Shown here piece by piece: positions 1-17,147 of a DNA stretch of 64,000 nucleotides. The notes below the pieces were generated by a model. That model did not search any database, had not been told where the DNA came from, and worked only from the letters and a program-made list of their open reading frames with translations. Each line of letters opens with the position of its first letter. Within the stretch, counting starts at the first letter, position 1. Both the position numbers and the translations under genes were made by a program. The DNA comes from an uncultured Rivularia sp. (GTDB taxonomy: Bacteria; Cyanobacteriota; Cyanobacteriia; Cyanobacteriales; Nostocaceae): assembly GCA_963665115.1 (NCBI GenBank), contig OY762007.1, forward strand, positions 384,001 through 448,000, in the 5' to 3' direction.

Positions 1-675
1 GCGTCCGATACCCACAGCGTAAATTTATTACCTGGCACTGTAGATTATAATGATGCAGACTTTGGTTATAAACTGGCAATTGCCAGCAATCCCGATGTCA
101 TTCTAGTCAAACGCATCACCGCAATAAACGGCGATCGCGATAAAAACCCCAACGACAATACTCCCTTAAATACCTTTGTCGATGATACAGTTTCTGCTCG
201 TAAAGATGATGATAACAATCCCAACTGGCTAGATAATTACCTTATTGGTGCCATTGATGCAGGTAAAGTAAAACCCGGTGACGAAATTGAATATACGGTT
301 TACTTCCTCAATGCTGGAAGTAGCGATGGAGAAAACCTGCGAATATGCGACAGAATTACTCCCGACCAAGATTTTAAATTAAATGCTTACGGTACTGGTA
401 ACGACTTGCAATTAAAATTAGACAGCAAGGCTGTAATTAATTTAACCAGTGCTTCCGATACTAATGACCGCGCTCAATTAATTCCAACAACTGGTAGTGT
501 TCCAGCTAACTGTAACCTCAAAGCCACCAACGATAACGGCACATTACAAATTGACATTACAGGTACAGGAAATACCACCCAATCTGATTTAACAACCGTA
601 CCCGGTTCCACAGGAAAAGGAACACCCGATAATTCCTACGGATTCTTCAGATTTACAACCACCGTCAAACCCTAA
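1..675 (+). CDS. 3' part (5' end outside window) of a secreted DUF11-like surface protein (array gene A)
   Basis: Frame +1 is open from base 1: ASDTHSVNLLPGTVDYNDADFGYK...VILVKRIT...IEYTVYFLN...RICDRITP...NSYGFFRFTTTVKP*. It shares the C-terminal motifs of the neighbouring paralogues; the 406 start in the ORF track is only an internal TTG. Confidence 0.85.
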   Translation, partial: ASDTHSVNLLPGTVDYNDADFGYKLAIASNPDVILVKRITAINGDRDKNPNDNTPLNTFVDDTVSARKDDDNNPNWLDNYLIGAIDAGKVKPGDEIEYTVYFLNAGSSDGENLRICDRITPDQDFKLNAYGTGNDLQLKLDSKAVINLTSASDTNDRAQLIPTTGSVPANCNLKATNDNGTLQIDITGTGNTTQSDLTTVPGSTGKGTPDNSYGFFRFTTTVKP

Positions 676-867: not shown

Positions 868-3800
868 ATGCTAAATCCTAAATTTAAACCTAACCTACAG
901 CGCAAGAAACGTATTTACGATTATCGTCCTTTGCTGATGACGTTTTTACTTACAGGTAGTAACTGGTTGTCAGCATTGCCATTGTTAGCCGCTAATTCGA
1001 CACCTGGAACCGTAATTGATAACCAAGCTACTGGTAGTTTCACTGACCCAAACGATAGTAATAACGAAGTACAAATTGAATCAAACGTAGTTCAAGTAGA
1101 AGTTGCTGAAGTTGCGGGTATCACTATTTCCCAATCAGCAATCCCAGAAGAAGCCCCCAGCGGTGTCACTGATGCGGGAGCTAATCAAGGCAATGGTGAT
1201 ATTAATCCCGATGACGTTATTTACTTTACATATAAAATTACTAACGTCGGTAACGACCCTACACAATTCTTTATTCCCGATGCTCCTTCTTCAGTTAATA
1301 ACGGTAGTTTAAACGGAAATATTCAAATTATTGAATATGACCCCGATGGTGCTTCAGCAGTAGATTTAACTAGTGATAATATTACTGTTCCCAGCAACGG
1401 TGATACTACTGGAAGTTTATTAAATGGAGTTGCTAATACTAATGATGGTTCTGTTCCTGTGGGGGGTAGTATTACTATTCGCGTTCCCATTAAAGCTGAT
1501 TCCAACTTAAGTGATGGGGATACGGTAACTGTAATCATGGGTGATACGGGAAGCAATGATAATTCCGCAGCAACGCAAAACCAAGTTTACGCTGTGGGTA
1601 CTAATGATGTTTACACAGAAGATAATCCAAACGGGACAACGGGGGAAACTGATGGGACTCCAATAAATGGAGACGCTACGAATAATCGTCAGGAAGCTAG
1701 TTTCAGTCAGGATGTGACGGTGAGTGCTATTAACACAAACCCATTTTCCTGTGCCAGAGCGTTTTATCAAGTTATTGACAACCAACTCAAAAAACTAGAT
1801 CCACTCACAGGTAATTATCTCAATATAGGTAGTCCGGCACCCGGTCACTACAATGCCGCAGCATATAACTCAATTGACAATTTCATCTACGGCTATGGTC
1901 GTGAGGGTTCGATTGCAGGTCACTTGGTCAAAATTAGCCAAGATGGTGCCTTACAAGACTTGGGAGCGCCGACAAAAATTAAAGGGGTTGGCTCTCTCGA
2001 GAGTGCCCATTCGGGCGATTTTGATAATAGCGGCAATTTGTGGCTGCGTTCGAGTGCTTCGGGAGCGTTTATTTATCGCCTCAATGTCCAAACTAATGAG
2101 TATGAAGGGTTTGCGTTCAGCCAAGATATTGGAAACGTAGCCGACCTTGTGTATATTAACGGCAAGCTATACGGTGCCCAATCTAACAAGCTTTACATTA
2201 TTGACATTACTAATCCGGTTTCTGGCACCACGCTATCAGTGACAACCGCAACTGTTTCTGGATTACCTGCAAGTACTGGTAATCCTAGTTTCTATGGTGC
2301 TGCCTACACAGATATCGCAGACAATTTATATGTTTCTCGTAACACCAACGGCGCGGGCAGTGGAGAACTGTATCAAGTTATTGGCTACGATACGGGAACG
2401 CCCAAGGCGGTCAAACTGGTGGATACTCAGACGACTAACAAAAACGATGGCATGAGCTGCCCGAATGCACTACCACCACTTGACTTGGACTTAGGCGATG
2501 CGCCAGATTCCGGTGCAGGTACAGGAAGCAACAACTACAATACACTTGCGATTGATGAGGGTCCTTTACATATTATTAATAGCAATATTTACTTAGGTAG
2601 TGCTGTGACTGCTGATACTGATGGATTTGGTGACGGCACTGATAATAACGGCGATGCTAGCGATGATGCCAATGATGATGGCGTGCAGTTGAGCAGTGCT
2701 TCCCTGCAAGGTCAGAGTTTGACCGCAGGTCAAACAGTAAACCTAGATATTACAACCGCAGGAAGTGGTAAACTAAGCGTCTGGTTTGACTGGAACCAAG
2801 ACGGTGATTTCGACGATGCTGACGAGAAAGTAGCTACGGATATTGCACCAAGTAGCAATGCAATTTCTCTACCCGTAAACGTACCAGCAACAGCTACCGA
2901 AGGAACTACTTACGCTCGCTTCCGTTATAGTTCGCAAGATGGACTTACACCGACAGGTACAGCCAGCGATGGGGAAGTGGAAGATTATCAAGTTGAAATT
3001 GCAGCAGCACCAACAGTCTTTGACTACGGTGACGCACCGAATGATTTATCTTCAATTGACGGTGATTTAAGTTCCGCTTACCCCACCCTAGATGCGGAAA
3101 ATGGAGCCAAGCATACAATTGACGGTAGTACTTTCCTCGGCTCAGGTGTCAATAACGAAAGCGACGGACAACCCACTTTAAATGCTGACGGTGATACCGA
3201 TGATGGTGTTACCTTCCCCACTCTTGGTAGTAATACCGCATTAGTAGTTGGTCAAAACAACACTATTACTGTGGAAGCTTCCAAAACTGGCGTACTCAAT
3301 GCTTGGGTTGACTGGAACCAAGATGGTGACTGGGACGATCCAGGAGAACAAATCGCTACCAACGAGGCTCTTAGTGCTGGCTCAAATACACTTAACGTTA
3401 ATCCAGGCACAACTACTCCTCATGGTGCTACTTACGCCCGCTTCCGGTTTAGCAGCCAATCTAATTTATCGCCAACGGGAGCAGCCAGCGACGGTGAAGT
3501 GGAAGACTATAAAGTGAACGTTGTTATCCCAGAAATTACTGCTTGTTTAGCACCATTACTGAATGGTGGTTTCGAGTCACCCGCAGTTAATGGCTCAACA
3601 CCAACTCCATTAGAAGTTTTTCAATCAGGACGAATTGTTGCTTATCGAGAATCAGAAGTTGATGCTTGGGCTTATATTTCCAGCAATCCTAATAGTTCAA
3701 AATCAGATCGTTCACCAACTGGTTTTGAACAACGTAACGCCATTGAATTGTGGAGAACTGGCAACTTATTGAATGTACCACCTCACGAAGGTAATCAGTT

Positions 3801-5148
3801 TGCAGAAATTAATGCTTATATTCTTGGTAACTTGCATCAAGATATTATCACCACACCAGGCGTTGTCATGCGATGGCAGTTTGCTCACCGTGGACGCACA
3901 GGTAATGATACTATCCGAATTAAAATCGGAGCACCAGGAGCAACGGTTAACCAAGGAGAATTTACTACAGGCAACACTGAGTGGAAAGTTTATAGTGGTA
4001 CCTATACCGTTCCCGTCGGTCAAACAATTACACGTTTTGAGTTTGAAGCCGTTAGTACAGCCAATGGTGATGCTAGTACAGGTAACTTTATTGATGATAT
4101 CCGTTTCGGCGTAGACTGTAACAACAGCATTAACGGTACGGTTTTCCAAGATTACGGAACAACCACCGATAGCAATACCGGAAATGATGTCCTAGATGTA
4201 GATGAAAGCGGTATCCAAGATGTTGGTATTAGCCTTTATCAAGATGGTGGTGACGGTGTCTTTGGTGATGGAAACGGCAATCCAGGGGGCGATGATACAG
4301 TTGTCGGTAGCCCAGTAGATACCGATAGCGACGGTAACTACAACTTTACAGGACTTATAGCTGGCAACTACTGGGTTGATGTAGATACAGATGATGAGGA
4401 CTTAAAGGGTCGTGCTTATGGTGGTGGTGATGCAGATGCAACTCAGACCGATCCACGTTTGGTTACAATAGTCCCAGGTAACGACCAAACCGTAAACTTC
4501 CCTTTCAATGCCAACAACCCTAATGTTTTATTAATCAAACGCATTACCAAAATCAACGACGGTACCACTACCAACGACGGTGATAACCTCTCAGTTTACA
4601 ACCAAGATAGCTCCAATCCTTACGACGATAATGAATTAGACAATCCCGCACCCGACCCAATCGACACTGACAAATGGCTTGATACCACCTCAGACACAAG
4701 CAGTACCTTCCTCATCGGCGGAATTAACGGTGGTACAGTAAAACCCGATGACGAACTAGAATACACAATTTACTACCTCTCAGCAGGTGACACCGAAGCA
4801 GAAAACGTATTATTTTGCGATCGCGTTCCTGAAAATGTTTCTTTTATCCCCACCAGCTTTAACGGTGAAGCAAATAAAGCAACGGGAGGATTACAAAACG
4901 CGGATAGGGGTATTCAATGGTTAAAAGACGGTAATACAGAATCTTTAACCAATGTCCAAGATGGAGACGTAGCTCAATACTTCCCCCCTGGTGTTGAACC
5001 TTCTACGCTTTATCCAAAAATCAAGTGTGATGGTACAAATACGAATGGTGCGGTTGTCGTGAATTTAGGTAACTTACCTAATGCTACCGCTCCAGGTACG
5101 CCAAATACTTCTTATGGATTTGTTCGTTTCCGAGGAAAGGTGAAGTAG
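868..5148 (+). CDS. Large secreted surface protein, 1426 aa (array gene B): signal peptide, N-terminal NQAT strand, Ig-like domain, beta-propeller-like region, 2x GEVED, carbohydrate-binding-like domain, SdrD-B-like domain, C-terminal truncated DUF11-like domain
   Basis: Motifs: DLGDAPD...WFDWNQDGDF...TYARFR...DGEVEDY (twice), NGGFESP...EGNQFAEIN, SINGTVFQD...TDSDGNYNF, LLIKRIT...LEYTIYY...FCDRVP...SYGFVRFRGKVK. D/N/T/G-rich composition. Confidence 0.85.
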   Translation: MLNPKFKPNLQRKKRIYDYRPLLMTFLLTGSNWLSALPLLAANSTPGTVIDNQATGSFTDPNDSNNEVQIESNVVQVEVAEVAGITISQSAIPEEAPSGVTDAGANQGNGDINPDDVIYFTYKITNVGNDPTQFFIPDAPSSVNNGSLNGNIQIIEYDPDGASAVDLTSDNITVPSNGDTTGSLLNGVANTNDGSVPVGGSITIRVPIKADSNLSDGDTVTVIMGDTGSNDNSAATQNQVYAVGTNDVYTEDNPNGTTGETDGTPINGDATNNRQEASFSQDVTVSAINTNPFSCARAFYQVIDNQLKKLDPLTGNYLNIGSPAPGHYNAAAYNSIDNFIYGYGREGSIAGHLVKISQDGALQDLGAPTKIKGVGSLESAHSGDFDNSGNLWLRSSASGAFIYRLNVQTNEYEGFAFSQDIGNVADLVYINGKLYGAQSNKLYIIDITNPVSGTTLSVTTATVSGLPASTGNPSFYGAAYTDIADNLYVSRNTNGAGSGELYQVIGYDTGTPKAVKLVDTQTTNKNDGMSCPNALPPLDLDLGDAPDSGAGTGSNNYNTLAIDEGPLHIINSNIYLGSAVTADTDGFGDGTDNNGDASDDANDDGVQLSSASLQGQSLTAGQTVNLDITTAGSGKLSVWFDWNQDGDFDDADEKVATDIAPSSNAISLPVNVPATATEGTTYARFRYSSQDGLTPTGTASDGEVEDYQVEIAAAPTVFDYGDAPNDLSSIDGDLSSAYPTLDAENGAKHTIDGSTFLGSGVNNESDGQPTLNADGDTDDGVTFPTLGSNTALVVGQNNTITVEASKTGVLNAWVDWNQDGDWDDPGEQIATNEALSAGSNTLNVNPGTTTPHGATYARFRFSSQSNLSPTGAASDGEVEDYKVNVVIPEITACLAPLLNGGFESPAVNGSTPTPLEVFQSGRIVAYRESEVDAWAYISSNPNSSKSDRSPTGFEQRNAIELWRTGNLLNVPPHEGNQFAEINAYILGNLHQDIITTPGVVMRWQFAHRGRTGNDTIRIKIGAPGATVNQGEFTTGNTEWKVYSGTYTVPVGQTITRFEFEAVSTANGDASTGNFIDDIRFGVDCNNSINGTVFQDYGTTTDSNTGNDVLDVDESGIQDVGISLYQDGGDGVFGDGNGNPGGDDTVVGSPVDTDSDGNYNFTGLIAGNYWVDVDTDDEDLKGRAYGGGDADATQTDPRLVTIVPGNDQTVNFPFNANNPNVLLIKRITKINDGTTTNDGDNLSVYNQDSSNPYDDNELDNPAPDPIDTDKWLDTTSDTSSTFLIGGINGGTVKPDDELEYTIYYLSAGDTEAENVLFCDRVPENVSFIPTSFNGEANKATGGLQNADRGIQWLKDGNTESLTNVQDGDVAQYFPPGVEPSTLYPKIKCDGTNTNGAVVVNLGNLPNATAPGTPNTSYGFVRFRGKVK

Positions 5149-5181
5149 ACAATGCTGCAACGTGTTTTATCCTATTACCCA

Positions 5182-5206
5182 AGACGTAGCATTGCTACGT
5201 CTCTAC
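5182..5206. repeat. REP-like palindrome AGACGTAGCATTGCTACGTCTCTAC
   Basis: Perfect hairpin directly after the gene B stop; same family at 808, 8021, 24370, 24927, 46182, 57687, 61951. Confidence 0.8.
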
Positions 5207-5359
5207 ACTGTTTTTCGATTTACCCTCGAAGATAAAAATAACTGTTCCCTATTCCCTTTTGCTAATTAGAATTTTTAACGCTAATCTACTTATGATTTAT
5301 ATTTAATGGTTTTCAGGGGTTGCTACCAAAATCAAACCATTTTATAGTCAATCATCAAA

Positions 5360-7992
5360 GTGAAAAATCTTTACCAACAAATTAAATCGAATCATATTCG
5401 ATACCAGAAAAAGACTCGTAATTTCACTTCTCTTACTTATCACTTAAAAGTATTTCTAGCTCTGGCAATATTCACAACCAGTCCTTTTTATTGGCTGTTA
5501 CCCACCCTTGCCAATACTGCACCGGGAACCACAATTAATAACACTGCTACAGGTTCCTTTGAAGATTCAAACAACCCTGGTACTGTAACAAGCATTGAAT
5601 CTAATACGGTTTCGGTCACAGTTGCCGAAGTTGCGGGTATTACTATTACTCAATCTGCAATCCCAGAAGAAGCCCCCAGCGGTGTCACTGATGCGGGAGC
5701 TAATCAAGATAATGGTGAAATAAACCCAGACGATATTATTTACTTTACTTATAAAATTACTAACGTCGGTAACGACCCCCACACAATTTTTTATTCCTGA
5801 CGCACCTAGTAATATTACCAACGGTAGCTTAAGCGGAGATATTCAAATTATTGAATATGACCCCGATGGTGCTTCGGCAGTAGATTTAACTAGTAATAAT
5901 ATTACAGTTCCTAATAATGGAGCTACCACGGGAACCTTATTAAATGGGGTTGCTAATAGTAATGATGGTTCTGTTCCGGTTGGGGGTAGTATTACAATTC
6001 GCGTTCCCGTTAAAGCTGATTCAAATTCAGCTGATGGGGATAATGTAACTGTAATCATGGGTGATACGGGAAGTAATGATAATTCCGCAGCAACGCAAAA
6101 CCAAGTTTACGCTGTGGGTACTAATGATGTTTATACCCAAGATAATTCAGATGGGACAACGGGGGAAACCAATGGTAATCCAGTTAATGGGGATGCAACC
6201 AATCATCGACAGGAAGCGAGTTTTAGTCAAGAAGTGACAATCGTGGCAAATCCTAGCGGTCCCGTTGTTACTACAAACTTTTGCTCCAGTGCTTACAACA
6301 TGATTTACTCGGGGCATTTCCCTAATAGGATCGATGCGATTCACGTTGATAGCGGTGCTTCTGTGCCGTTGACAACATCAAATATTGCTGCTAACACTAA
6401 CAGTCTCGCTAGCGACCATATTAATAACTTAGTTTACTATGCAGAAAACCAGTCTATTTATGCCTGGAGTCCAATTACTAATACACATACTGTGATTACA
6501 AGTAATATAAAAGGCTTCGCTGGCACTAGCAATATTAGCAGTCTTAGTAGTGGTGGTGCAGCTTTTTATAATGGCTCGCTCTACCTGGGTATTGATGAAA
6601 ATCAACATACTGGTGGTGCTGAAGTTTACAAAGTTGATTTTGTACCTGGTTCCAATGGTCAGACAGTTCAAAGCGTGACTTCGCTTAATATCGCTAGTTT
6701 GATTCCACCTAGCGATTGGGGGGATCTTAGTATTGATAATAATGGTGTAATATTAAGTGCTACCCCCGATGGCTTTTGGACTTATAACCTAAACAACGGT
6801 ACATACACCTCTCTTTCGAGTAACCTTCCAGGAGGTCAGCACCAACTAGCTAAAGATGGCCAAGGTCGCCTATGGGCTGTAGTTTACACGCCGACTAAAT
6901 TCATCTTTCAAGTTCAGGTTGTTGGTAATAGCATTCAACAAGTAGGTCAAACTATTTCTGTAGATCCTCATGACACTAATGATGCTGCTGAATGTGTAAT
7001 TGGTGAGTCTAGTATAGGCGACCGTGTTTGGAATGATGCTAATGAAAATGGCGTGCAAGATGCTGGAGAAGATGGTATTGAGAATGTCACAGTTGACTTG
7101 TACTGGGACATTAACGGCAATGGTCAAATTGATAATGGTGACGATCCTGTATTAGCAACCCAAACCACAGGTACTGATGGTAATTATGATTTTCCTGACC
7201 TAATTTTTGGTAATTATATTGTTAAAGTTTCCGATACCAATGGAGTGCTTACAAACGCTTCATTGACTAGTGCGTCCGATACCCACAGCGTAAATTTATT
7301 ACCTGGCACTGTAGATTATAATGATGCAGACTTTGGTTATAAACTGGCAATTGCCAGCAATCCCGATGTCATTCTAGTCAAACGCATCACCAAGATTAAC
7401 GATAGTACTACTACTAATAATGGTGATAACCTCTTAATTTACAATCAAGAAGAATCTAACCCCTACGACGATAATAAATTAGACAATCCCGCACCCGACC
7501 CCAATCGACACTGACAAATGGCTTGATACCACCTCAGACACAAGCAGTACCTTCCTCATCGGCGGAATTAACGGTGGTACAGTAAAACCCGATGACGAAC
7601 TAGAATATACTATTTACTACCTCTCAGCAGGTGACACCGAAGCAGAAAACGTATTATTTTGCGATCGCGTTCCTGAAAATGTTTCTTTTATCCCCACCAG
7701 CTTTAACGGTGAAGCAAATAAAGCAACGGGAGGATTACAAAACGCGGATAGGGGTATTCAATGGTTAAAAGACGGTAATACAGAATCTTTAACCAATGTC
7801 CAAGATGGAGACGTAGCTCAATACTTCCCCCCTGGTGTTGAACCTTCTACGCTTTATCCCAAAATCAAGTGTGATGGTACAAATACGAATGGTGCGGTTG
7901 TCGTGAATTTAGGTAACTTACCTAATGCTACCGCTCCAGGTACACCAAATACTTCTTATGGATTTGTTCGTTTCCGAGGAAGAGTAAAGTAG
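5360..7992 (+). CDS. Secreted surface protein paralogue (array gene C), split by two +1 frameshifts (C5 at 5776-5780, C4 at 7499-7502)
   Basis: ORFs 5360-5800 and 6057-7514 plus the unlisted frame to TAG 7990-7992 join into one protein once one C is removed at each site (compare gene B GACCCTACA and GACCCAATC). It has a signal peptide, INNTATGSF strand, propeller-like region, SdrD-B (SIGDRVWND) and a C-terminus ending SYGFVRFRGRVK. Confidence 0.8.
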
Positions 7993-8020
7993 TTTGTGAA
8001 AACTTAAGAAACATAATATA

Positions 8021-8170
8021 AAGACGTAGCAATAGTCCGCCACATTAATTATGAGGGGTAACACATTCGTAGTGGGAGCGTCTCGCTCCCTCGTGACAAG
8101 CAGCGAGCTTTCCGGCTCGCACTCCCGAAACCCCGTAGAATTATCGTGGTTGGGTAATGCTACGTCTTTA
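8021..8170. mobile_element. REP palindrome interrupted by a 122-bp MITE-like insert (8034-8155) flanked by AAT/AAT
   Basis: AAGACGTAGC-AAT[insert]AAT-GCTACGTCTT. A related insert lies on the minus strand at ~61841-61920. Confidence 0.65.
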
Positions 8171-8293
8171 CTTTGTCAGAATCTACGCAATTGTCACAAT
8201 AACCTACTGGTGCGTGACACTAAAAACCTGATTACTAGATTAAAAATTAGTCAAAGTGTTACAGCAAAGGCAATAAATGGGGATATTATCTAC

Positions 8294-8401
8294 ACCCGGA
8301 CACTTGCTACAAGTCGGGGAACCCCTCCGGGTTCAACACTTTGCTTATGTCGGGGAAGCCGTCCACCGCAACTGTGTCACCGCCCAACGCAGTGTCCTCC
8401 C
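8294..8401. repeat. Self-nested small dispersed repeat (GCT..AAGTCGGGGAA.CCG.CCA.CGCA unit inserted within a copy of itself)
   Basis: GCTACAAGTCGGGGAACCC[...GCTTATGTCGGGGAAGCCGTCCACCGCA...]GCCCAACGCAGTGTCC. Confidence 0.55.
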
Positions 8402-9145
8402 TTTTTGCCTCCTCTATAAGAAAAATGTCAAGTTGCGTAAGTTCTATTTGTTTTGGGCAAATGTATCACTATTTCCATGTCTAAGCATTCTATGTATCAA
8501 AAAAAAATATACAACTATACAAAATAGTAATGTTATTTTTGCTGAAATATGGAGCGCATTGATTATAGGAAGTACATCATTTCAAGTATTCAATAAAGGC
8601 TACAAAGCTTTTAATAAAAGTATTTCAGAGGGTATGCTATTTGTCTGATCTTGCTGTAAAATTGTTACATATACAAGTTTTGATAAACTTTATTACTTAC
8701 GTATAAACACTGTAGTAATACTAAAAAAATACAGGTATTCTTAATAAAGAGGCTTGATAATTGCTTGATACTTAACAGTCAGTAGCTTAATGATTTAGGT
8801 ACTAAAACCGCGTGTCACAAAGCTGAAATATTTTTTGGTTCGACTTTCTGGGTTATCTTCCCTGATTGTGAGGAGGCGCATTCCTCACTTAGAGTCAAGA
8901 AATTTTGCTAATTGCGGTAAGTCTGAATTGATTGAGTTTTTTGCTTGCTATGCTATCAGTGATTGATTTAGCAGGAAATGGTTAGACTAACTCTTTTCTG
9001 ACGGCTATTTGAGTTCTATTTTGTTCCCTATTTTTTCGTTCCCTATTCGCATCAATTTAATAATAAAACAATCCTATGAAGTAGGATTTGAACGCTGATT
9101 TCTTGGAGAAAAATATCTGAAAAATTATCTAAAGTTGCTTGGTTA

Positions 9146-9248
9146 AGCTGATGTGCAGCTAAATTATATAATGCGTTAGCGCAGCGTGTCCGCGAGGACA
9201 TGCATCTTGCAAGAAGGGTATTATACAAATTAAGTGCGTAACGGCTTA
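9146..9248. repeat. MITE-like element with imperfect terminal inverted repeats (AAGCTGATGTGCA...TGCGTAACGGCTT)
   Basis: Ends resemble the element at 19464-19566; it carries the 26-nt double-hairpin insert at 9176-9201. Confidence 0.5.
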
Positions 9249-9473
9249 GTATGGGAATCCTCGGCAGAATTTTGTTCGTGCAGCGTGCCTGGAGGACATA
9301 AAATATACAGGCTGCTGTTAGCGAAGCATAACGTTATGTAGCATTCATTCTTTGGTGCGGTTCACCACAACCTTGTGATGCTTATTTATATTCGGTGACT
9401 TGTATTGTAATTCAAACTCGATTACCCTAATATCTATCCTCTCGAAGCTGTTTTGGAACGTTAAATATTAAGT

Positions 9474-10037
9474 GTGAATTTATCAAAGAATAACAATTTA
9501 TTTCATGCAGTACGATATTGCAAACGGTGCTGTAGTTATAATTCCTGTATTCAAGATATAAATCAACCTAATCTTGTCTACATAATTAGATTATTATTGA
9601 TAGTCATAGCAATTTTGCTGATGCGCTCGACTATGGCGAATTGGTCAATTTTTGTGATGTCGATAATACTAACTTTAGAAATTTTAAACAAGCTGTTATA
9701 CAGAAGATTACCTCGCAGAATTGATTTAAATCGGATTGAGTATTACTTAGTAAAATTTACAAATATTACCCAAGTTATTAGTCTTGAACTGTATTATGTT
9801 ACGCCCAAAATCAAAATCCTTCACGTTGGCTTAAAGGTTGCTATAGAGGATATAGAAGCAGGGGAATGCCTAAGAAAACAAATTAAATCCGATCTATGGC
9901 AAAAGTTTGGTGTAACTGAAACTTTAATTGATATGACAGAATTTATTTTAGGTAAACCATACAATCTAGATTCTATACAGCTAGAATTCCAAACACAGTT
10001 AAATTTCAAAAGACAAGCATCGATTGACCGGAATTGA
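9474..10037 (+). CDS. Truncated cation-diffusion-facilitator-like protein (Cys-rich N-terminus, ~2 TM helices, CDF C-terminal dimerisation-like domain)
   Basis: CKRCC N-terminus; hydrophobic segments; PRRIDLNRIE...LHVGLKV...QIKSDLWQKFGVTETLIDM resembles the CDF cytosolic domain (recognised from memory, not searched). Confidence 0.45.
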   Translation: MNLSKNNNLFHAVRYCKRCCSYNSCIQDINQPNLVYIIRLLLIVIAILLMRSTMANWSIFVMSIILTLEILNKLLYRRLPRRIDLNRIEYYLVKFTNITQVISLELYYVTPKIKILHVGLKVAIEDIEAGECLRKQIKSDLWQKFGVTETLIDMTEFILGKPYNLDSIQLEFQTQLNFKRQASIDRN

Positions 10038-10287
10038 ATAAGTATTTAGGCAACATTAATTGTCTATTTGTCATTGTGGGTGAAACGAAGCATTCAACGT
10101 TCACCGGAGGTGCGGCTCATCTCTTATATTTAATTACCCCCCGCCTACTACCTACTTATTACTGGTAATGCTGGTACCGGAGAACCAAATCTAACAAGCT
10201 TACCCGGTTCCACCGGAGAAGGTTTTGTAACAGTAATTAATATATTAACTAATGCTCACTAAAGCTAATATATGATAAAATTTATGT

Positions 10288-10884
10288 ATGAGTAAATATA
10301 TCCCGCTAAGAAAAGCGGTTGAACGGTTGGGATTGCATCCAAACACTTTAAGAAGATATGCGGATAATGGAGAAATCGAGAGTATCAAAAATAAAGCAGG
10401 GCAAAGATTGTACAACGTCGATTCCTACATCAACGGTGCAGCTAGAGCTACTACCATTTGTTACTGTCGAGTCAGTTCCAAAAAGCAAAAAGACGACCTT
10501 CAAAGACAAATCGAATATATGCAATCCCAATACCCGAGTGCAGAAATCATCTTTGATATCGGTTCCGGACTCAACTTTAAAAGAAAAGGATTGCGTTCCA
10601 TACTGGACAGATTATTGCTTGGAGATAAGCTCCAGATTATTGTTGCCTGTAGGGATAGATTATGCCGATTTGGATTTGAGCTTATACAGTATTTGGTCGA
10701 ACAAAACGGTGGACAAATCTTGGTTCTCGACAAAAATGTTCACTGTCCACAAACTGAACTCACAGCCGATATTCTCTCAATTATCCACGTCTTCTCTTGT
10801 AGAATGCACGGACTCAGAAAATATAGTCAAAAAATCAAAGAAGATAAAGATATTCCTGAATCGGCAGCAGAAAGCAATAATTAA
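10288..10884 (+). CDS. tnpA: IS607-family serine recombinase transposase (N-terminal HTH plus resolvase domain)
   Basis: AVERLGLHPNTLRRYAD HTH; catalytic YCRVSSKKQKDDL; DIGSGLNFKRKGL; RDRLCRFGFEL. Confidence 0.92.
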   Translation: MSKYIPLRKAVERLGLHPNTLRRYADNGEIESIKNKAGQRLYNVDSYINGAARATTICYCRVSSKKQKDDLQRQIEYMQSQYPSAEIIFDIGSGLNFKRKGLRSILDRLLLGDKLQIIVACRDRLCRFGFELIQYLVEQNGGQILVLDKNVHCPQTELTADILSIIHVFSCRMHGLRKYSQKIKEDKDIPESAAESNN

Positions 10885-11936
10885 AAAGTGGTTCGGAGTA
10901 AGTCGGTTTGTTTATAATCAAACTATTGAATATTTGAAGGAACCCGAGAATAAAGCAAATTGGAAGGCGATTAAAACAGGAATTTTAAATAGTTTACCAG
11001 ACTGGTGTTCATGTGTTCCTTATCAAATTAAGTCAATCGCTATTAAAGACGCTTGTCAAGCTGTTAGTAAAGCTAAAAAGGATTATAAGAAGACAGGTAA
11101 ATTTAATAATTGCAGATTTAGGTCAAGAAAAGCGATTATTCAAAGTTGTTATATCCCTAAAAGCGCGATAAATGAAAAAGGAATCTATTACACTAAGTTA
11201 GGACATCTAGAATATGGTGAATCTTTGCCAGAAAATATTTTAGATAGTAGATTAGTATGTGCTTATGGGGATTACTATGTGACTATCCCTATCAATGATA
11301 AGCAGTATAAATCCGATAACCAAGGAAGAGTAGTTGCTTTAGATCCAGGTATTAGAACTTTTCAAACTTTCTTTTCTGAAACTAGTTTTGGTGAAATTGG
11401 TAATGGTGCTAATTTAAAAGTACAGAAATTATGCTTTAAATTAGATGCGCTAGTATCAAAAATAAGTCAAGCTAAATGTAAACAAAAAAGAAGATTAAAA
11501 AAAGCTGCGAATAGACTTCGTTGCAAAATAAAGTCCCTCATTGATGAATTACATAAAAAGACTGCTAAATTTTTGGTAGATAGTTTCGACTTCATCTTAC
11601 TTCCGACATTTGAAACATCACAAATGTCTAAAAAAGCTAAGCGCAGAATTCGTTCTAAATCTGTCCGGCAAATGCTAACTTTGAGCCATTACAAATTCAA
11701 ACAATTTTTAAAACATAAAGCATTTGAATATGGTAAAAAAGTTTTTGATGTTAATGAAGCATACACATCAAAAACCGTAAGTTGGACAGGTGAGATTCTA
11801 CAAAAACTTAGTGGTTCTAAAGTTGTAACTTCTAAAATAGATGGACGTTTCTATGCCTAGAGATTTAAATGGTGCGCGAGGAATTTTTCTTCGTGCATTG
11901 GTTGATACGCCATCTCTTAGAGATTGTATTTGTTAA
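10358..11936 (+). CDS. tnpB: RNA-guided endonuclease TnpB of pro-Fanzor/Fanzor2-like type; +1 frameshift at TTT 11848-11850 hides RuvC-III
   Basis: KWFGVSRFVYN; RuvC-I VVALDPGIRTF; ILLPTFETSQM; VNEAYTSKT. Removing one T gives ...GRSMPRDLNGARGIFLRALVDTPSLRDCIC* (stop 11934-11936). The true start is uncertain. Confidence 0.85.
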
Positions 11937-12042
11937 CGAATGTTAGCAAAAAAGTATCGGTACCCCGAATAATTCTTACGGATTATTTCGGTTTACACTC
12001 AAAGTAAAACGTTAATTTTCAATTCTGCTTTTTTAAACCTGT

Positions 12043-12076
12043 ATTTTCCCGGATGTTAGGTAATATCCGGGAAAAT
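12043..12076 (+). terminator. Hairpin downstream of the surface-gene remnant (probable former terminator)
   Basis: ATTTTCCCGGAT...ATCCGGGAAAAT 12-bp stem. Confidence 0.5.
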
Positions 12077-12485
12077 TTCTGCTATTTATTGTAATTTCAA
12101 TAGTTTTACGTAGATACAAATCATGATTTTATATGCAATATATGAAGTAAGAGAAAAATCTCATTTGGTTTAGTTGTTTTAATCTATGTCACTTGTGTTT
12201 TTGCATCCTGAAAAACATATTTCTTTTTTTAGAATATGCAATCTTGAAGTAAAGATAATGGTTCTACTATGATTAATAACAAAAAAACTTGATTGGAAAA
12301 TATTTTATGGGATTTGCTTGATTCTCCTGTAGGTAAGGAATGCGCCTCCTTGCTTAAATATATAAACATCCCATAACTTTGGCTGAATTGTGTGAATAAT
12401 TCAGGTTTTTTAATGTCATATGCTGCGTTGAAAAAGCATATGCCAAATTTATAAAGTTCGGTTCTAATTGTGACACGCGGCTTGA

Positions 12486-15285
12486 GTGAGTGCATCAATG
12501 AAATATATGTTAAAAGGGTTGTATCTTAGTAAATCTAAATTTACTAACGTTAAAATAAATATAAATATACAGCTGTTTAGGAGTTTATTTTTTACATTAT
12601 TTATTTTGAATCTGTGGACGTTAACAGCAAAAGCTGAAGGTTCAAAAGACTTAGTTGAAAAAGGCGGAGATAGACCTTATACAGAATGGGCTACAGCTAC
12701 ATCTGCAAATATTGAACGTAAAACCAGGCTCAAGGTTTTTGTTAAGAATGGAGAAATCGTAAATCTTGGCTCCAGCGTACATAATAGTTCTGATGGTAAA
12801 GATATAGTCTTTCGCAGTCCTTCTGGTGTTGAGCAAGTTTGTGATGTTCTGACATCTGGTGAAGGCTTTATAGATACCGTAGCTAAAGAAACTGCTGGTC
12901 CTTTACCCAATACTGGGGGTTATACACCATGTACCTTTACAGCTACAGAGACAGGAATTTACGATGTAGAATTTCATTCCCCTAAAACCAGTGGAGATCC
13001 ACCTGTTAGGTCGGTAACGCAACAATTCCCTACAGGTAATACACAAGGGCAAGCTGTAGCTGCTTGGGATATTACAGTTCGAGATGGTGCAAATACTAAG
13101 ATGGGACGGGTATTTACCAACTATGTTGCGATGAACATGGGAGCTAGCGGTCAATCTCTCAACTCAGAATTTTTTATTCAAACAAAAGATGGTTTTTTAT
13201 ATAAAACCGTAATGAATGGGGTAGACCCTTTCGGGTTTATTTTCTTTGGTAACAGCAGGGGATTTATTGACAAAACTGATAATAGTACCCTCTATCATTC
13301 TGCTAAAGCCAATAATAATCAATTATCTCCATTTCTAGGAAACGTTCAAGTACAGCGTCCCGATGTTGCGGATACTCCAACCGATATTACTCATTTAACA
13401 TTTTTCAATACTCCCGACCCGGAGACTCTAGATGAATTAGGGATTCCCCGTACACCAGCAATTCCAGCAACACCAACGAACTTTGAATTTACTGGTGGTA
13501 CTGGTGGAAGCGGAAACCAAACTTTTGTAGGTGTTGGGGGAAATTTCAGTTTTGATTCTACAAGCGCAGGTAGTTACGAAATTATTATTGACACGGATGA
13601 AGATGGTGTATTTGACCCCAGTCAAGATAGAGTCTTACAGAATATAGCTAATCTCGGTAGTAACGTCGTATCTTGGGATGGTCAAGATGCTGACGGTAAT
13701 AATGTGGGTCCTCGCGTTAATAACGACCCCTACAATGCCAGAATTAGACTGCGAACTGGAGAATATCACTTTCCCATGTTGGATGCGGAAAACAATCCTA
13801 ATGGATTTGTGATTGAAATGCAAAATCCACCGACTGCATTTCCCAATGGATTTAACGAATTTACTGTCTACTACGATGATGACGATTACACGACTAGTGA
13901 CGGTACACCTGTAAGCTTGGACGATAGCGGTGCGAGTAATCCCCGCAATGCTGCGACTGGAACTGATAGTTCTACTGGAGCGCACAGGTTTACTGGGGAT
14001 TACGGTGATTTTAAAGGAATCGATACTTGGTCTTATTTTCCTAGTGAAGGAACATCAACCAATCTGATTATCACCAACGATAAATCTGCAAATGTACGCG
14101 GTACTAAATCGGTACAGTTCTTTGAAGACAAAGATAGTAGCGGTACCGTGACTGTGGGAGATACCGTTGAATACACTATTACATACAGCAATAATGCTCC
14201 TGAAGCTACCACAGACGCAAATAATTTTACGATCCAAGATGATTTACCACCACAATTAACTTACAATTCATCTCAAATCGTTTCGCAAACAACTGGTAAT
14301 AATATTCAGCTAAATTCTTCCTATAACGGTTCTGGTGCATTAACTAATTCTGGTACTTTGAGAATTGATGATGAAATTACTATCAAAATAATCGCTACTA
14401 TTGATGATAGAAATAATGGAGACTCAATTAGCAACCAAGCTAACGCAACTTTCACTACACCCGATAACCCAGCAGCAACTGGAAGCGCTTTAACCGATGC
14501 TGATTCTGCGGGAGTTACCCAAGATAATCCACCAACTGTAGGGAGTGCTTTCAAACAAATTGATGATGATAGTCAAAATACCGGAAACGACCCCTTCAGA
14601 TACAGCAGATGACGAACCGACTCTTATCAATGTAGAAGAATCACCTGTGGTAAGCGGTTCTCCTAAGATTATTTTAGTGAAGAGAATTACAGCACTTAAT
14701 GGGGTTGATTTTAACGACTTTGTTGATGACCCCAATAGTGCTGACGATAATAACTCGAATTGGCCAGACTCCGATCCTTCAGATACAAATAGAAATGATT
14801 TTTTACGTGGAATTATTAGCGGTGCTTTGGTTCTTCCTGGTGATGAGTTGGAATACACAATCTACTTTCTTTCAATGGGTGAAACAGATGCCAGCAAATT
14901 AAGAATCTGCGACTTAATACCAACTTATACAACTTTTCTTCCTACAGCTTTTAATGGTTCAACACCTAGAGATGGTGGATTGCTCAATGCAAATTTAGGT
15001 ATCGCAATTTCTCTAGATAATACTAATTTTTCTAGCACTCCAACGGCTTTTATAACTAATATTGCTGATGGTGATAGAGGAGAGTTTTTCGATGCTGGAA
15101 AAAAACCATCTATGGATTGTTCTCGTAGCAATAATGGTGTGAATGACAATGGCGCTGTTGTTGTGAACATGGTCAATAAAGATAATGCTAACCAAGATAT
15201 TATACCTACCGCAAATGTTGACCAGACACAACCCAAACCAACTAGTTCCTATGGTTTTATCAGATTTAAAGTCAAAATTAATTGA
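12486..15285 (+). CDS. Secreted surface protein (array gene D) with one complete internal DUF11 and a C-terminal truncated DUF11; +1 frameshift at C4 14591-14594
   Basis: Signal peptide ending TAKA-EG; internal GTKSV...VEYTITYSN...QDDLP...ISNQANATF. Removing one C joins 12486-14612 to 14545-15285 (NDPSDTADDEPT...ILVKRIT...ICDLIP...SYGFIRFKVKIN*). Start may be ATG 12498 or 12507. Confidence 0.82.
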
Positions 15286-15349: not shown

Positions 15350-16228
15350 CTATATTTTCTCAATTTCTTCAATATTTAACCCCGTAGTCTCCACAATTAA
15401 ATTAATATCAATTCCTCTGGCTTTCAAAGATTTAGCGATTTTGATCTGTGCTATTTTTTCCCCTTCTTTCATTCCTTCTTTCCTCCCCCGCAATTCTCCC
15501 GTTACTTCCGCACTTTCTATAATGCTAATTTCATATCTTCTATCTTCGAGATATTTTTGATATGCAGTTCTTTCCGCTGGCGATAAATTTTCAATCTTTA
15601 AATTATCTTTTGCTTGAGCCAATCCTCTGGCTTGAAATTCGTCTTTGATTTCACTATTTTTCAAGAAATATATCCACTCATCTAAACTATCTTTCGCTAC
15701 GTCGTTAAAGTTATTAACTCTTAAAACGTAATATTCTGGAAATATTTCGTAAACTTCTTCAATCTTAAATACCTCTTTCTGTAATTCTGAAGGTTCTAAT
15801 TTATCATTGATGTGAATTCCACAAAAATCTACTTTACCTTGATAAATATAATCCCTTCCTTGTCCCAGAGAAAAATAAACGATATTAATCGAATAAACTT
15901 TTTTTACTTTACCGTAAGCTTCCCCTTTACCAAGATATTCGCTAATTAATGCCGAAACTCCATACAGCATCCGATGAAAATAATCATTTTCTGGGCTGTT
16001 TTGAACTTCAATTAATAAAAATTCATCTTTAGTATTTTTAGCTAAAATATCAACTCTGTTAAGCTTGCTTTCTTCAGTTATTCGATTGCTTTCGCTTTCT
16101 AAAATCGACTCAATAAAGATATCTTCTTTTAATAACTCGCTGATAAAACCTTCTAGAACTACGTAATTAGCTTTATCGCGCAATAGTTTTTTGATTGCCC
16201 AGTCGAAGCGGATATGTGTTCCTGCCAT
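15350..16228 (-). CDS. Rpn-family recombination-promoting nuclease / PD-(D/E)XK protein, copy 2
   Basis: RFDWAIKKLL; RVDILAK...LIEVQ nuclease motif; RMLYG; C-terminal EGxxEG repeats followed by an IAKSLK...TGL HTH tail. Confidence 0.88.
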   Translation of the reverse strand: MAGTHIRFDWAIKKLLRDKANYVVLEGFISELLKEDIFIESILESESNRITEESKLNRVDILAKNTKDEFLLIEVQNSPENDYFHRMLYGVSALISEYLGKGEAYGKVKKVYSINIVYFSLGQGRDYIYQGKVDFCGIHINDKLEPSELQKEVFKIEEVYEIFPEYYVLRVNNFNDVAKDSLDEWIYFLKNSEIKDEFQARGLAQAKDNLKIENLSPAERTAYQKYLEDRRYEISIIESAEVTGELRGRKEGMKEGEKIAQIKIAKSLKARGIDINLIVETTGLNIEEIEKI

Positions 16229-16244
16229 GATAATTTTTGTTTAT

Positions 16245-17147
16245 TTATAATTTGTCAATTTCTTCAACACTTAATCCTGTAGCTTTGACAATCAAATTAA
16301 TATCAGTTCCTTCTGCTTTCAACGATTTAGCAATTTTAATTTGGGTTTGCTTCTCTCCTTCTTTTATCCCTTCTTTCTTTCCTTCCTCTCTTCCTTCTTT
16401 CCTCCCCCGCAATTCTCCCGTTACTTCCGCACTTTCAATAATGCTAATTTCATATCTTCTATCTTCGAGATATTTTTGATATGCAGTTCTTTCCGCTGGC
16501 GATAAATTCTCAACTTTTAAATTATCTTTTGCTTGAGCCAATCCTCTGGCTTGAAATTCGTCTTTAATTTCACTATTTTTCAAGAAATAGATCCACTCAT
16601 CTAAACTATCTTTCGCTACATCGTTAAAGTTATTAACTCTTAAAACGTAATATTCTGGAAATATTTCGTAAACTTCTTCAATTTTAAATACCTCTTTCTG
16701 TAATTCTGAAGGTTCTAATTTATCATTAATGTGAATTCCACAAAAATCTACTTTACCTTGATAAATATAATCCCTTCCTTGTCCGAGAGAAAAATAAACA
16801 ATATTAATCGAATAAACTTTTTTTACTTTACCGTAAGCTTCCCCTTTACCAAGATATTCGCTAATTAATGCCGAAACTCCATACAGCATCCGATGAAAAT
16901 AATCATTTTCTGGGCTGTTTTGAACTTCAATTAATAAAAATTCATCTTTCGTATTTTTAGCTAAAATATCAACTCTGTTAAGCTTGCTTTCTTCAGTTAT
17001 TCGATTGCTTTCACTTTCTAAAATCGACTCAATAAAGATATCTTCTTTTAATAATTCGCTGACAAAACCTTCTAAAACTACGTAATTAGCTTTATCGCGC
17101 AATAGTTTTTTGATTGCCCAGTCGAAGCGAATATGTGTTCCTGCCAT
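16245..17147 (-). CDS. Rpn-family recombination-promoting nuclease / PD-(D/E)XK protein, copy 1
   Basis: Near-identical to the adjacent copy up to ELRGRKEG; the tail is divergent. Confidence 0.88.
   Translation of the reverse strand: MAGTHIRFDWAIKKLLRDKANYVVLEGFVSELLKEDIFIESILESESNRITEESKLNRVDILAKNTKDEFLLIEVQNSPENDYFHRMLYGVSALISEYLGKGEAYGKVKKVYSINIVYFSLGQGRDYIYQGKVDFCGIHINDKLEPSELQKEVFKIEEVYEIFPEYYVLRVNNFNDVAKDSLDEWIYFLKNSEIKDEFQARGLAQAKDNLKVENLSPAERTAYQKYLEDRRYEISIIESAEVTGELRGRKEGREEGKKEGIKEGEKQTQIKIAKSLKAEGTDINLIVKATGLSVEEIDKL

Follow-up and report, generated by a model that had tools for sequence, protein, structure and literature searches.

The window analysed here is a 64,000-nucleotide stretch of an uncultured Rivularia sp. 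(contig OY762007.1, positions 384,001 to 448,000), and carries towards its start four tandem genes for predicted surface proteins, A to D, whose last domains are DUF11-like and end before the strand that bears the Asn. We read these genes as coding for tips and in-line cargo proteins in a predicted surface fibre with split-DUF11 hairpin joints and a Lys-Asn lock, and give this reading a probability of roughly 0.7. The relevant features are listed by window position; "donor" refers to an N-terminal hairpin and "acceptor" to the truncated last domain.

1..675, plus strand: 3' end of gene A, a 907-codon frame with its start 2 kb 5' of the window; Lys at 109, Asp at 349
868..5148, plus strand: gene B, 1426 amino acids (aa)
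1003..1104, plus strand: donor hairpin of gene B, aa 46-79, Asn52 at 1021
4510..5148, plus strand: acceptor domain of gene B, aa 1215-1426, with Lys1224 (4537), Cys1317 (4816), Asp1318 (4819) and Cys1387 (5026), without the Asn strand
5360..7992, plus strand: gene C, with hairpin, domain 1, A-type head, SdrD-B and B-type acceptor (Lys 7380, Asp 7663)
5522-5623, plus strand: hairpin of gene C, Asn at 5540
12486..15285, plus strand: gene D, likely a tip, with no hairpin; variable head, complete DUF11, acceptor (Lys 14680, Asp 14911, Cys 15118)
14085..14510, plus strand: complete DUF11/CLIPPER domain of gene D, K541 (14106), Asp (14238), N650 (14433), the unsplit reference

Gene B consists of a signal peptide (recognised by eye), the donor hairpin, a complete immunoglobulin-like (Ig) domain 1 and a DUF6923 repeat, followed by two GEVED domains, domains resembling carbohydrate-binding modules and SdrD-B, and the acceptor; it is likely an in-line cargo subunit. 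Gene A also combines donor hairpin, cargo and acceptor, the hairpin part lying upstream of the window. Each terminal domain of A-D retains a YTI strand and a Cys-Asp motif as well as the Lys strand, and has the FRFxxKV strand as its last. Lys, Asp and Asn occur together in one domain of one chain in D's internal domain, where the conserved acid is the first Asp of QDDLP (14238), and in none of the A-D terminal domains. A preliminary description of this DNA had named N52, K1224 and D1318 of gene B and the Lys, Asp and Asn of gene D, and had proposed that D holds a complete domain in that order while the terminal domains lack the Asn strand. All of these residues and motifs are where it placed them, the order in D is as described, and the truncation is seen in the sequence, in 115/115 aligned homologues and in the model of the B acceptor. 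The C-terminus lies 5 residues past the last conserved Phe in 113 of the 115 aligned tip-type homologues and 6 past it in the other two. The same description put the missing element behind the signal peptides of B and C; the position is correct, but the element is a two-strand hairpin rather than one strand, and gene A has it as well.

Profile comparison links the two pieces. By hhalign, the hairpin profile pairs with the Asn strand of the complete domain in D, the two Asn being aligned (probability 85.8, E 5e-6), as against probabilities of at most 32, on other strands, for ten windows of the same length from B's next domain; hhalign of whole alignments recovered the acceptor core alone. Against PF01345 (cut-off 24.6 bits), D's internal domain scores 41.5 and that of the upstream adaptor protein described below 34.9, both over the whole domain; the acceptor domains match the first half only and fall below the cut-off (for A, 15.2 bits over profile positions 9-57), and TIGR01451 also matches. 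The proteins do not have LPXTG-type sortase signals, since most end 3-6 residues past the last strand with no hydrophobic tail, and Pfam/NCBIfam scans of the operon's frames found no sortase.

The window is the 3' end of a larger conserved operon, and four further components of the proposed fibre lie 2-18 kb upstream of it. Contig positions are given for these genes.

365686-368226: shaft gene M, about 850 aa with DUF7925, an N-terminal hairpin and a C-terminal acceptor
368453-369026: small partner S, about 190 aa, acceptor-shaped
369477-371051: adaptor, 524 aa, with hairpin, complete DUF11 and SdrD-B, and no acceptor
371036-376027: barrel, 1663 aa, with Ig domains and a long series of strands that a heuristic marks as amphipathic
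376096-378309: beta-helix/OmpA protein
380082-381935: tip A', acceptor only

Conservation among homologues follows the split residues. The M set comprises 376 distinct proteins (about 211 effective sequences), limited to those that align at both ends and in the middle domain; Asn46 is kept in 375/376, Lys701 in 376/376 and Glu/Asp763 in 376/376, while the triad of the internal DUF7925 domain is kept in 354, 364 and 365 of 376, and a 135-row M set gives the same picture. Tip-type acceptors have the Lys, the Asp and the first Cys in 115/115 and the second Cys in 111/115. A disulfide between the two acceptor Cys, suggested in the preliminary description, is plausible for the tip type; the M acceptor has neither Cys. 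By hhalign, the Glu of M and the Asp of the tips fall on the Asp of DDLP, and the hairpin profile has no match to M's own internal domains. In S the Lys is present in 79/80 and Gln stands at the acid position in 80/80; Thermus and Deinococcus S lack both Lys and acid.

Mean-field covariation analysis of the 376 M sequences places expected within-domain contacts at the top ranks. Among 3720 7-residue ladders tested for the Asn strand, the best is antiparallel and starts at Asn46-Lys701, with z 2.45-2.55 over three pseudocounts; the best for domains 1 and 2 reach 1.34-1.68, and 22 permutations, in which relatedness is not kept, give 0.78-1.25. The internal DUF7925 domain, used as a control, has a ladder of the same geometry at Asn409-Lys259.

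The AlphaFold2 model of B 1215-1426 (predicted local distance difference test, pLDDT, 91.6) has its final strand at 202-211 and nothing after it. The structures that match it best are isopeptide domains of the CnaA type in pilins and adhesins (Z 5-7.2); CLIPPER 9IFR gives Z 5.8 (root-mean-square deviation 2.2, 89/123 aligned), and the match to RrgA Jo-In stops at residue 683, short of Asn695. In the model of B 42-295 (pLDDT 93.9) the hairpin strands are at 8-18 and 26-37. Sequence searches of the PDB returned nothing for the M profile at E up to 1, chance matches only for S and nothing for D's DUF11.

Several of these results weigh against the proposed fibre. The B acceptor folds confidently by itself, and no structural match reaches Z 8 among 48,161 chains. 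The hairpin is held rigidly on the neighbouring domain (pLDDT 86-96, predicted template modelling score 0.88), which in the model fits a stalk projecting from domain 1 and also a hairpin packed against it. An invariant Asn1391 lies inside the tip-type acceptors. The covariation is modest, with single hairpin-acceptor pairs ranking 63-77 of 119,433 amid probable noise and no clear ladder for the second hairpin strand, and is blind to whether a contact is within or between chains. Finally, one of the public sequencing runs, X1, carries the frameshifts of M, S and D. The confident folding of both pieces alone, with acceptor insertions that could cover the open edge, would suit a scheme without complementation, in which the hairpin would belong with domain 1 and the barrel would recognise the last domain as a sorting domain complete in itself. 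Domain 1, however, already has its own last two strands (178-183 and 234-243 in the model), and the adaptors, as well as two genes of G003/G007-type arrays, have the hairpin without domain 1. The Lys and acid are also invariant despite the lack of an Asn strand in cis, and a fused locus described below lacks both ends together; we consider this scheme highly improbable.

Since covariation does not separate cis from trans, and A, B, C and M each have both ends, another possibility is that every protein with donor and acceptor closes on itself as a ring; the preliminary description had allowed a cyclised protein beside a filament. Four kinds of protein are present: acceptor-only (A', D and most tips), donor with acceptor (M, A, B, C), donor-only (the adaptor) and S, with Gln for the acid. 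Among the best 120 of 502 homologues of the B acceptor, the hairpin was found in 9, B included, some of the other 111 being 5'-partial gene calls, and it was seen by eye in 0/43 tip genes adjoining the operon. The adaptors have the hairpin Asn in 80/80 and no acceptor. Fourteen barrel loci were hand-picked from about 45 genomes without M and S; a donor-only adaptor is present in 13 (10 by profile, 3 by eye), and acceptor-only tips follow in 12 of those 13, the other being cut by the contig end. The sole donor and the sole acceptor are therefore on different proteins in the 12 shaft-less loci with tips. In the fourteenth locus, L216 (G322:C22), adhesin head and adaptor are fused and both hairpin and acceptor are absent, an unsplit form beside the barrel. 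Because most acceptor proteins carry no hairpin, cyclisation is unlikely as a general rule; with adaptors lacking the acceptor, trans pairing is required in these proteins, and the spacer between the ends varies from about 530 to 1380 residues with differing domains. Ring closure throughout is thus very unlikely. Gene logic, conservation, profile and fold comparison, and covariation all support completion of one subunit's last domain by the N-terminal strands of another, and complementation between chains is very probable.

Within the proposed fibre, a Lys-Asn bond that forms by itself is probable, judging from the conserved residues and from analogous domains. The same plug-in assembly could instead be non-covalent, as in chaperone-usher pili, with Lys, acid and Asn kept for folding or binding. 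The bond here is a prediction, it is absent in some DUF11 domains (PMC12617251; this and the other cited sources are used in partial text, and what is said of them applies to those parts), and N35A oligomers of the fibre protein BsaA remain resistant to sodium dodecyl sulfate unheated (PMC11580942). Yet the split triad is better conserved than the internal one, and S, the only acceptor-shaped member that would need release, has Gln in place of the acid in 80/80, with Lys and acid both absent in the Thermus and Deinococcus loci. The split CnaA domain Jo-In, moreover, bonds in trans (PMC5333627). Non-covalent assembly is unlikely.

The fibre, as proposed, would be built by the N-terminal two-strand hairpin of one protein completing the truncated last DUF11-type domain of the next, the joint being locked by a predicted self-forming Lys-Asn bond. 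From tip to cell the order would be tip, optional cargo A/B/C, many M, adaptor and outer-membrane barrel, with A-C inserted between tip and shaft or anywhere within the shaft, the barrel serving as exit and anchor, and the OmpA protein as an optional wall tether. The earlier proposal of A-D as a filament stands in that these subunits would join; because the likely shaft, adaptor and barrel lie upstream of the window, a role as minor in-line subunits suits A-C, and that of a tip suits D, better than that of the main polymer. We infer that subunits leave the cytoplasm by Sec and that the fibre functions in adhesion, its heads being exchanged through recombination of tandem copies. S may cap the hairpin of M without bonding and so prevent polymerisation in the periplasm; such a reversible cap has about an even chance.

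The genes also allow a product shorter than a fibre, namely covalent hetero-oligomers (adaptor-tip, or adaptor, few subunits and tip) that stand on the barrel as a modular adhesin with M as a spacer. A long polymer is not required everywhere, as operons of adaptor, barrel and tip with no shaft are common: of 401 genomes in the class, the barrel was found in 161, DUF7925 (M) in 116 and S in 118, with M and S shared in 113. M, on the other hand, has both ends, stands first in the operon, has a dedicated partner in S and shows nothing in its sequence that would limit self-polymerisation. Short oligomers as the only product are improbable, and a long fibre through the barrel is fairly likely.

The operon is widely conserved. 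The best 80 of 517 matches were kept and 77 loci fetched; the order M-S-adaptor-barrel is present in 72/77, and the remaining five are cut by contig edges. Named matches are heterocyst-forming and other cyanobacteria. The barrel matched 32 plasmid records from other phyla and cyanobacteria, of which three were inspected: in Thermus pTT27 (TTH_RS10905-10925 in T. thermophilus HB8) and Deinococcus pDFI1 all five genes recur and their ends are split in the same way, and on a Sinorhizobium plasmid (L101) a barrel homologue follows one DUF11 gene of >3300 codons, which suggests a simpler two-gene form in Proteobacteria. Look-alikes of the barrel in the Atlas at 0.98 belong to outer-membrane clusters with loose names or none. 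All3289 of Anabaena PCC 7120, a 1289-aa outer-membrane protein (PMC9705863), is at most a candidate for the same barrel. Short forms of M, 567-613 aa (P0148, P0174, P0175, P0179, P0204, P0215, P0233, P0267; L218), keep both ends and lack a middle section; no DUF7925 match was found in L218. The genome studied has two further adaptor-barrel-(OmpA)-tip operons, at about 3276569-3283938 and 959599-971461, without M or S and with several frames likewise frameshifted.

Ten genomes of the genus have twelve regions with arrays of 2-7 acceptor-ended genes, 0-2 of them hairpin-bearing in each; this genome has three. Gene C is a mosaic of a B-like first domain (87% nucleotide identity), an A/A' head (91-98%) and a B acceptor (94%). 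Modules have been reshuffled by recombination, because gene C joins parts of A/A' and B. Active cassette switching was not adopted, as the mosaic fits ordinary recombination, and the paralogue A accounts for the single contig joint (1547 to 6096, in one run). Repeats of about 117 bp (contig 378313-379926, 381937-382071 and 384664-384834) could seed duplication; they separate A', A and B and also flank a small frame (378753-379478) between the OmpA gene and the first tip, which we take to be transposase-like and which occupies the same site in four relatives.

Six single-base insertions, all in C or T runs, occur within 35 kb: 5776 and 7499 in gene C, 11848 in the TnpB gene and 14591 in gene D (window positions), and one each in M and S (L001:846, 3927). 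The public runs come from one study with at most three samples. Gene C is likely intact and its frameshifts assembly errors, because both extra bases are absent from contigs of 3/3 runs. X1 has the extra bases of D, TnpB, M and S, which X2 and X3 lack; intact genes are probable for M, S and D, with X1 leaving room for real breaks in this isolate. Relatives carry whole, unbroken genes, and no clean motif behind the errors emerged from genome-wide counts of C runs. Caution is warranted with other broken genes of this assembly, given the homopolymer insertions.

Two features between genes C and D concern a former acceptor gene.

10146..12015, plus strand: acceptor-gene remnant, its domain end in two pieces (about 10160-10230 and 11959-12015) flanking the element below
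10288..11860, plus strand: IS607-type element with a resolvase/MerR helix-turn-helix gene and TnpB, outside the fibre system

The remnant was earlier described as keeping only the terminal strand; it does keep that strand, and a second piece is present before the IS607-type element. The element interrupts the last strands of the former gene, of which the upstream part is gone. Multi-copy repeats with very high contig depth (8011-8544 and 9079-9612) lie between gene C and the element, as does a 187-aa frame (9474-10037) with a hydrophobic stretch and no Pfam match. Behind gene D, on the minus strand (15350-17147), are two near-identical tandem PD-(D/E)XK nuclease-family genes, which also stand behind the tip gene in several relatives. 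A promoter and terminator scan gave chance-level counts (47 vs 46.5; 12 vs 10.8).

Taken together, the chances are evenly balanced that this is a widespread, undescribed class of covalently locked diderm pili, with a split CLIPPER tag and catcher, an isopeptide-dead S masking the donor as an inverse chaperone, a giant non-usher barrel for assembly and anchoring of the chain and tandem donor-cargo-acceptor genes that, in this lineage, splice adhesive modules into the shaft. If so, diderm pilus assembly would have a route independent of usher and sortase, which occurs in about 29% of the sampled cyanobacterial genomes (116/401) as well as in Thermus and Deinococcus. Uncharacterised families (DUF7925 proteins, the barrel and S) would gain a function, and the fibre would be a candidate for how filamentous cyanobacteria attach and build mats. 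A natural 35-residue tag, a 150-210-residue catcher and shaft subunits bearing >1000 residues of cargo could also serve in protein ligation and display.

Donor-strand exchange with a self-made Lys-Asn lock and no sortase is known from BsaA of Clostridium perfringens, a member of the TasA family (PMC11580942). As in BsaA, where the Asn is on the N-terminal donor (N35) and the Lys and acid on the accepting subunit (K74, E56; PMC11580942), M has the donor Asn in 375/376 and the acceptor Lys and acid in 376/376, and the tips have the Lys and Asp in 115/115. BsaA, however, has the TasA fold, a monoderm host, the SipW peptidase and a small single-domain subunit (PMC11580942), whereas here the fold is DUF11/CLIPPER, the donor has two strands, the subunits are multi-domain (570-1400 aa) and there is a dedicated outer-membrane barrel. 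Scans of the locus proteins gave no TasA/camelysin family, and no peptidase gene (SipW) is among the operon's frames.

Features of chaperone-usher pili such as type 1 and P pili provide the second comparison. Like the proposed fibre, these pili have a tip with a head and an incomplete C-terminal Ig domain, an N-terminal extension that completes the distal neighbour, and operons with a small periplasmic partner and a large outer-membrane protein (PMC9715654, PMC11821415). They differ in that the donor here is a hairpin, the joint is likely covalent, cargo domains lie inside shaft-type subunits and the small partner is acceptor-shaped, its chaperone-usher counterpart being a strand donor. Pfam/NCBIfam scans of the 1663-aa barrel protein gave no usher family, and S has no PapD-type match; it hits no models but those of DUF11 type, and its sequence stops at the last strand of the acceptor.

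Other known systems share single elements. CLIPPER/DUF11 (PF01345, PDB 9IFR) and DUF7925 domains are described, in the parts of the source used, solely as intramolecular isopeptide stalk domains, and the word "donor" is absent from the text (PMC12617251); the fold family and the Lys/Asp/Asn order are shared, with complete copies in D, the adaptor and M, but the domain here is divided over two chains. The archaeal thread (Saci_0406) is a head-to-tail donor-strand filament for which an isopeptide bond between subunits is proposed, and it has a gene for a donor-only cap (PMC9715654). Its bond joins the N-terminal Asp24 to Asn57 of subunit n+2, and it has no barrel (PMC9715654); the conserved residues here are, by contrast, an internal Asn, a Lys and an acid in a predicted CnaA-type core. 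Jo-In, an engineered split of RrgA D2 (PDB 5MKC), is a two-chain CnaA-type Lys-Asn pair with a catalytic Asp, but is artificial and cut elsewhere, with acid and Asn on the same piece (PMC5333627). The donor-strand pilus of WxL proteins in Gram-positive bacteria is a separate system (10.64898/2026.10.17.759780), and further DUF11 literature concerns Synechococcus signal peptides (PMC13297417), Litorilinea grappling hooks (10.1101/2025.08.19.671072) and tafi (PMC11821415). No split-DUF11 fibre with its own barrel was found in the open literature searched, subscription papers and bioRxiv supplements being outside that scope. The donor-strand-and-lock chemistry is already known from BsaA, and what is new relative to the literature searched is the split-DUF11 family, which is BsaA-like in chemistry and chaperone-usher-like in architecture, is a member of neither family and is possibly a new class of pilus.

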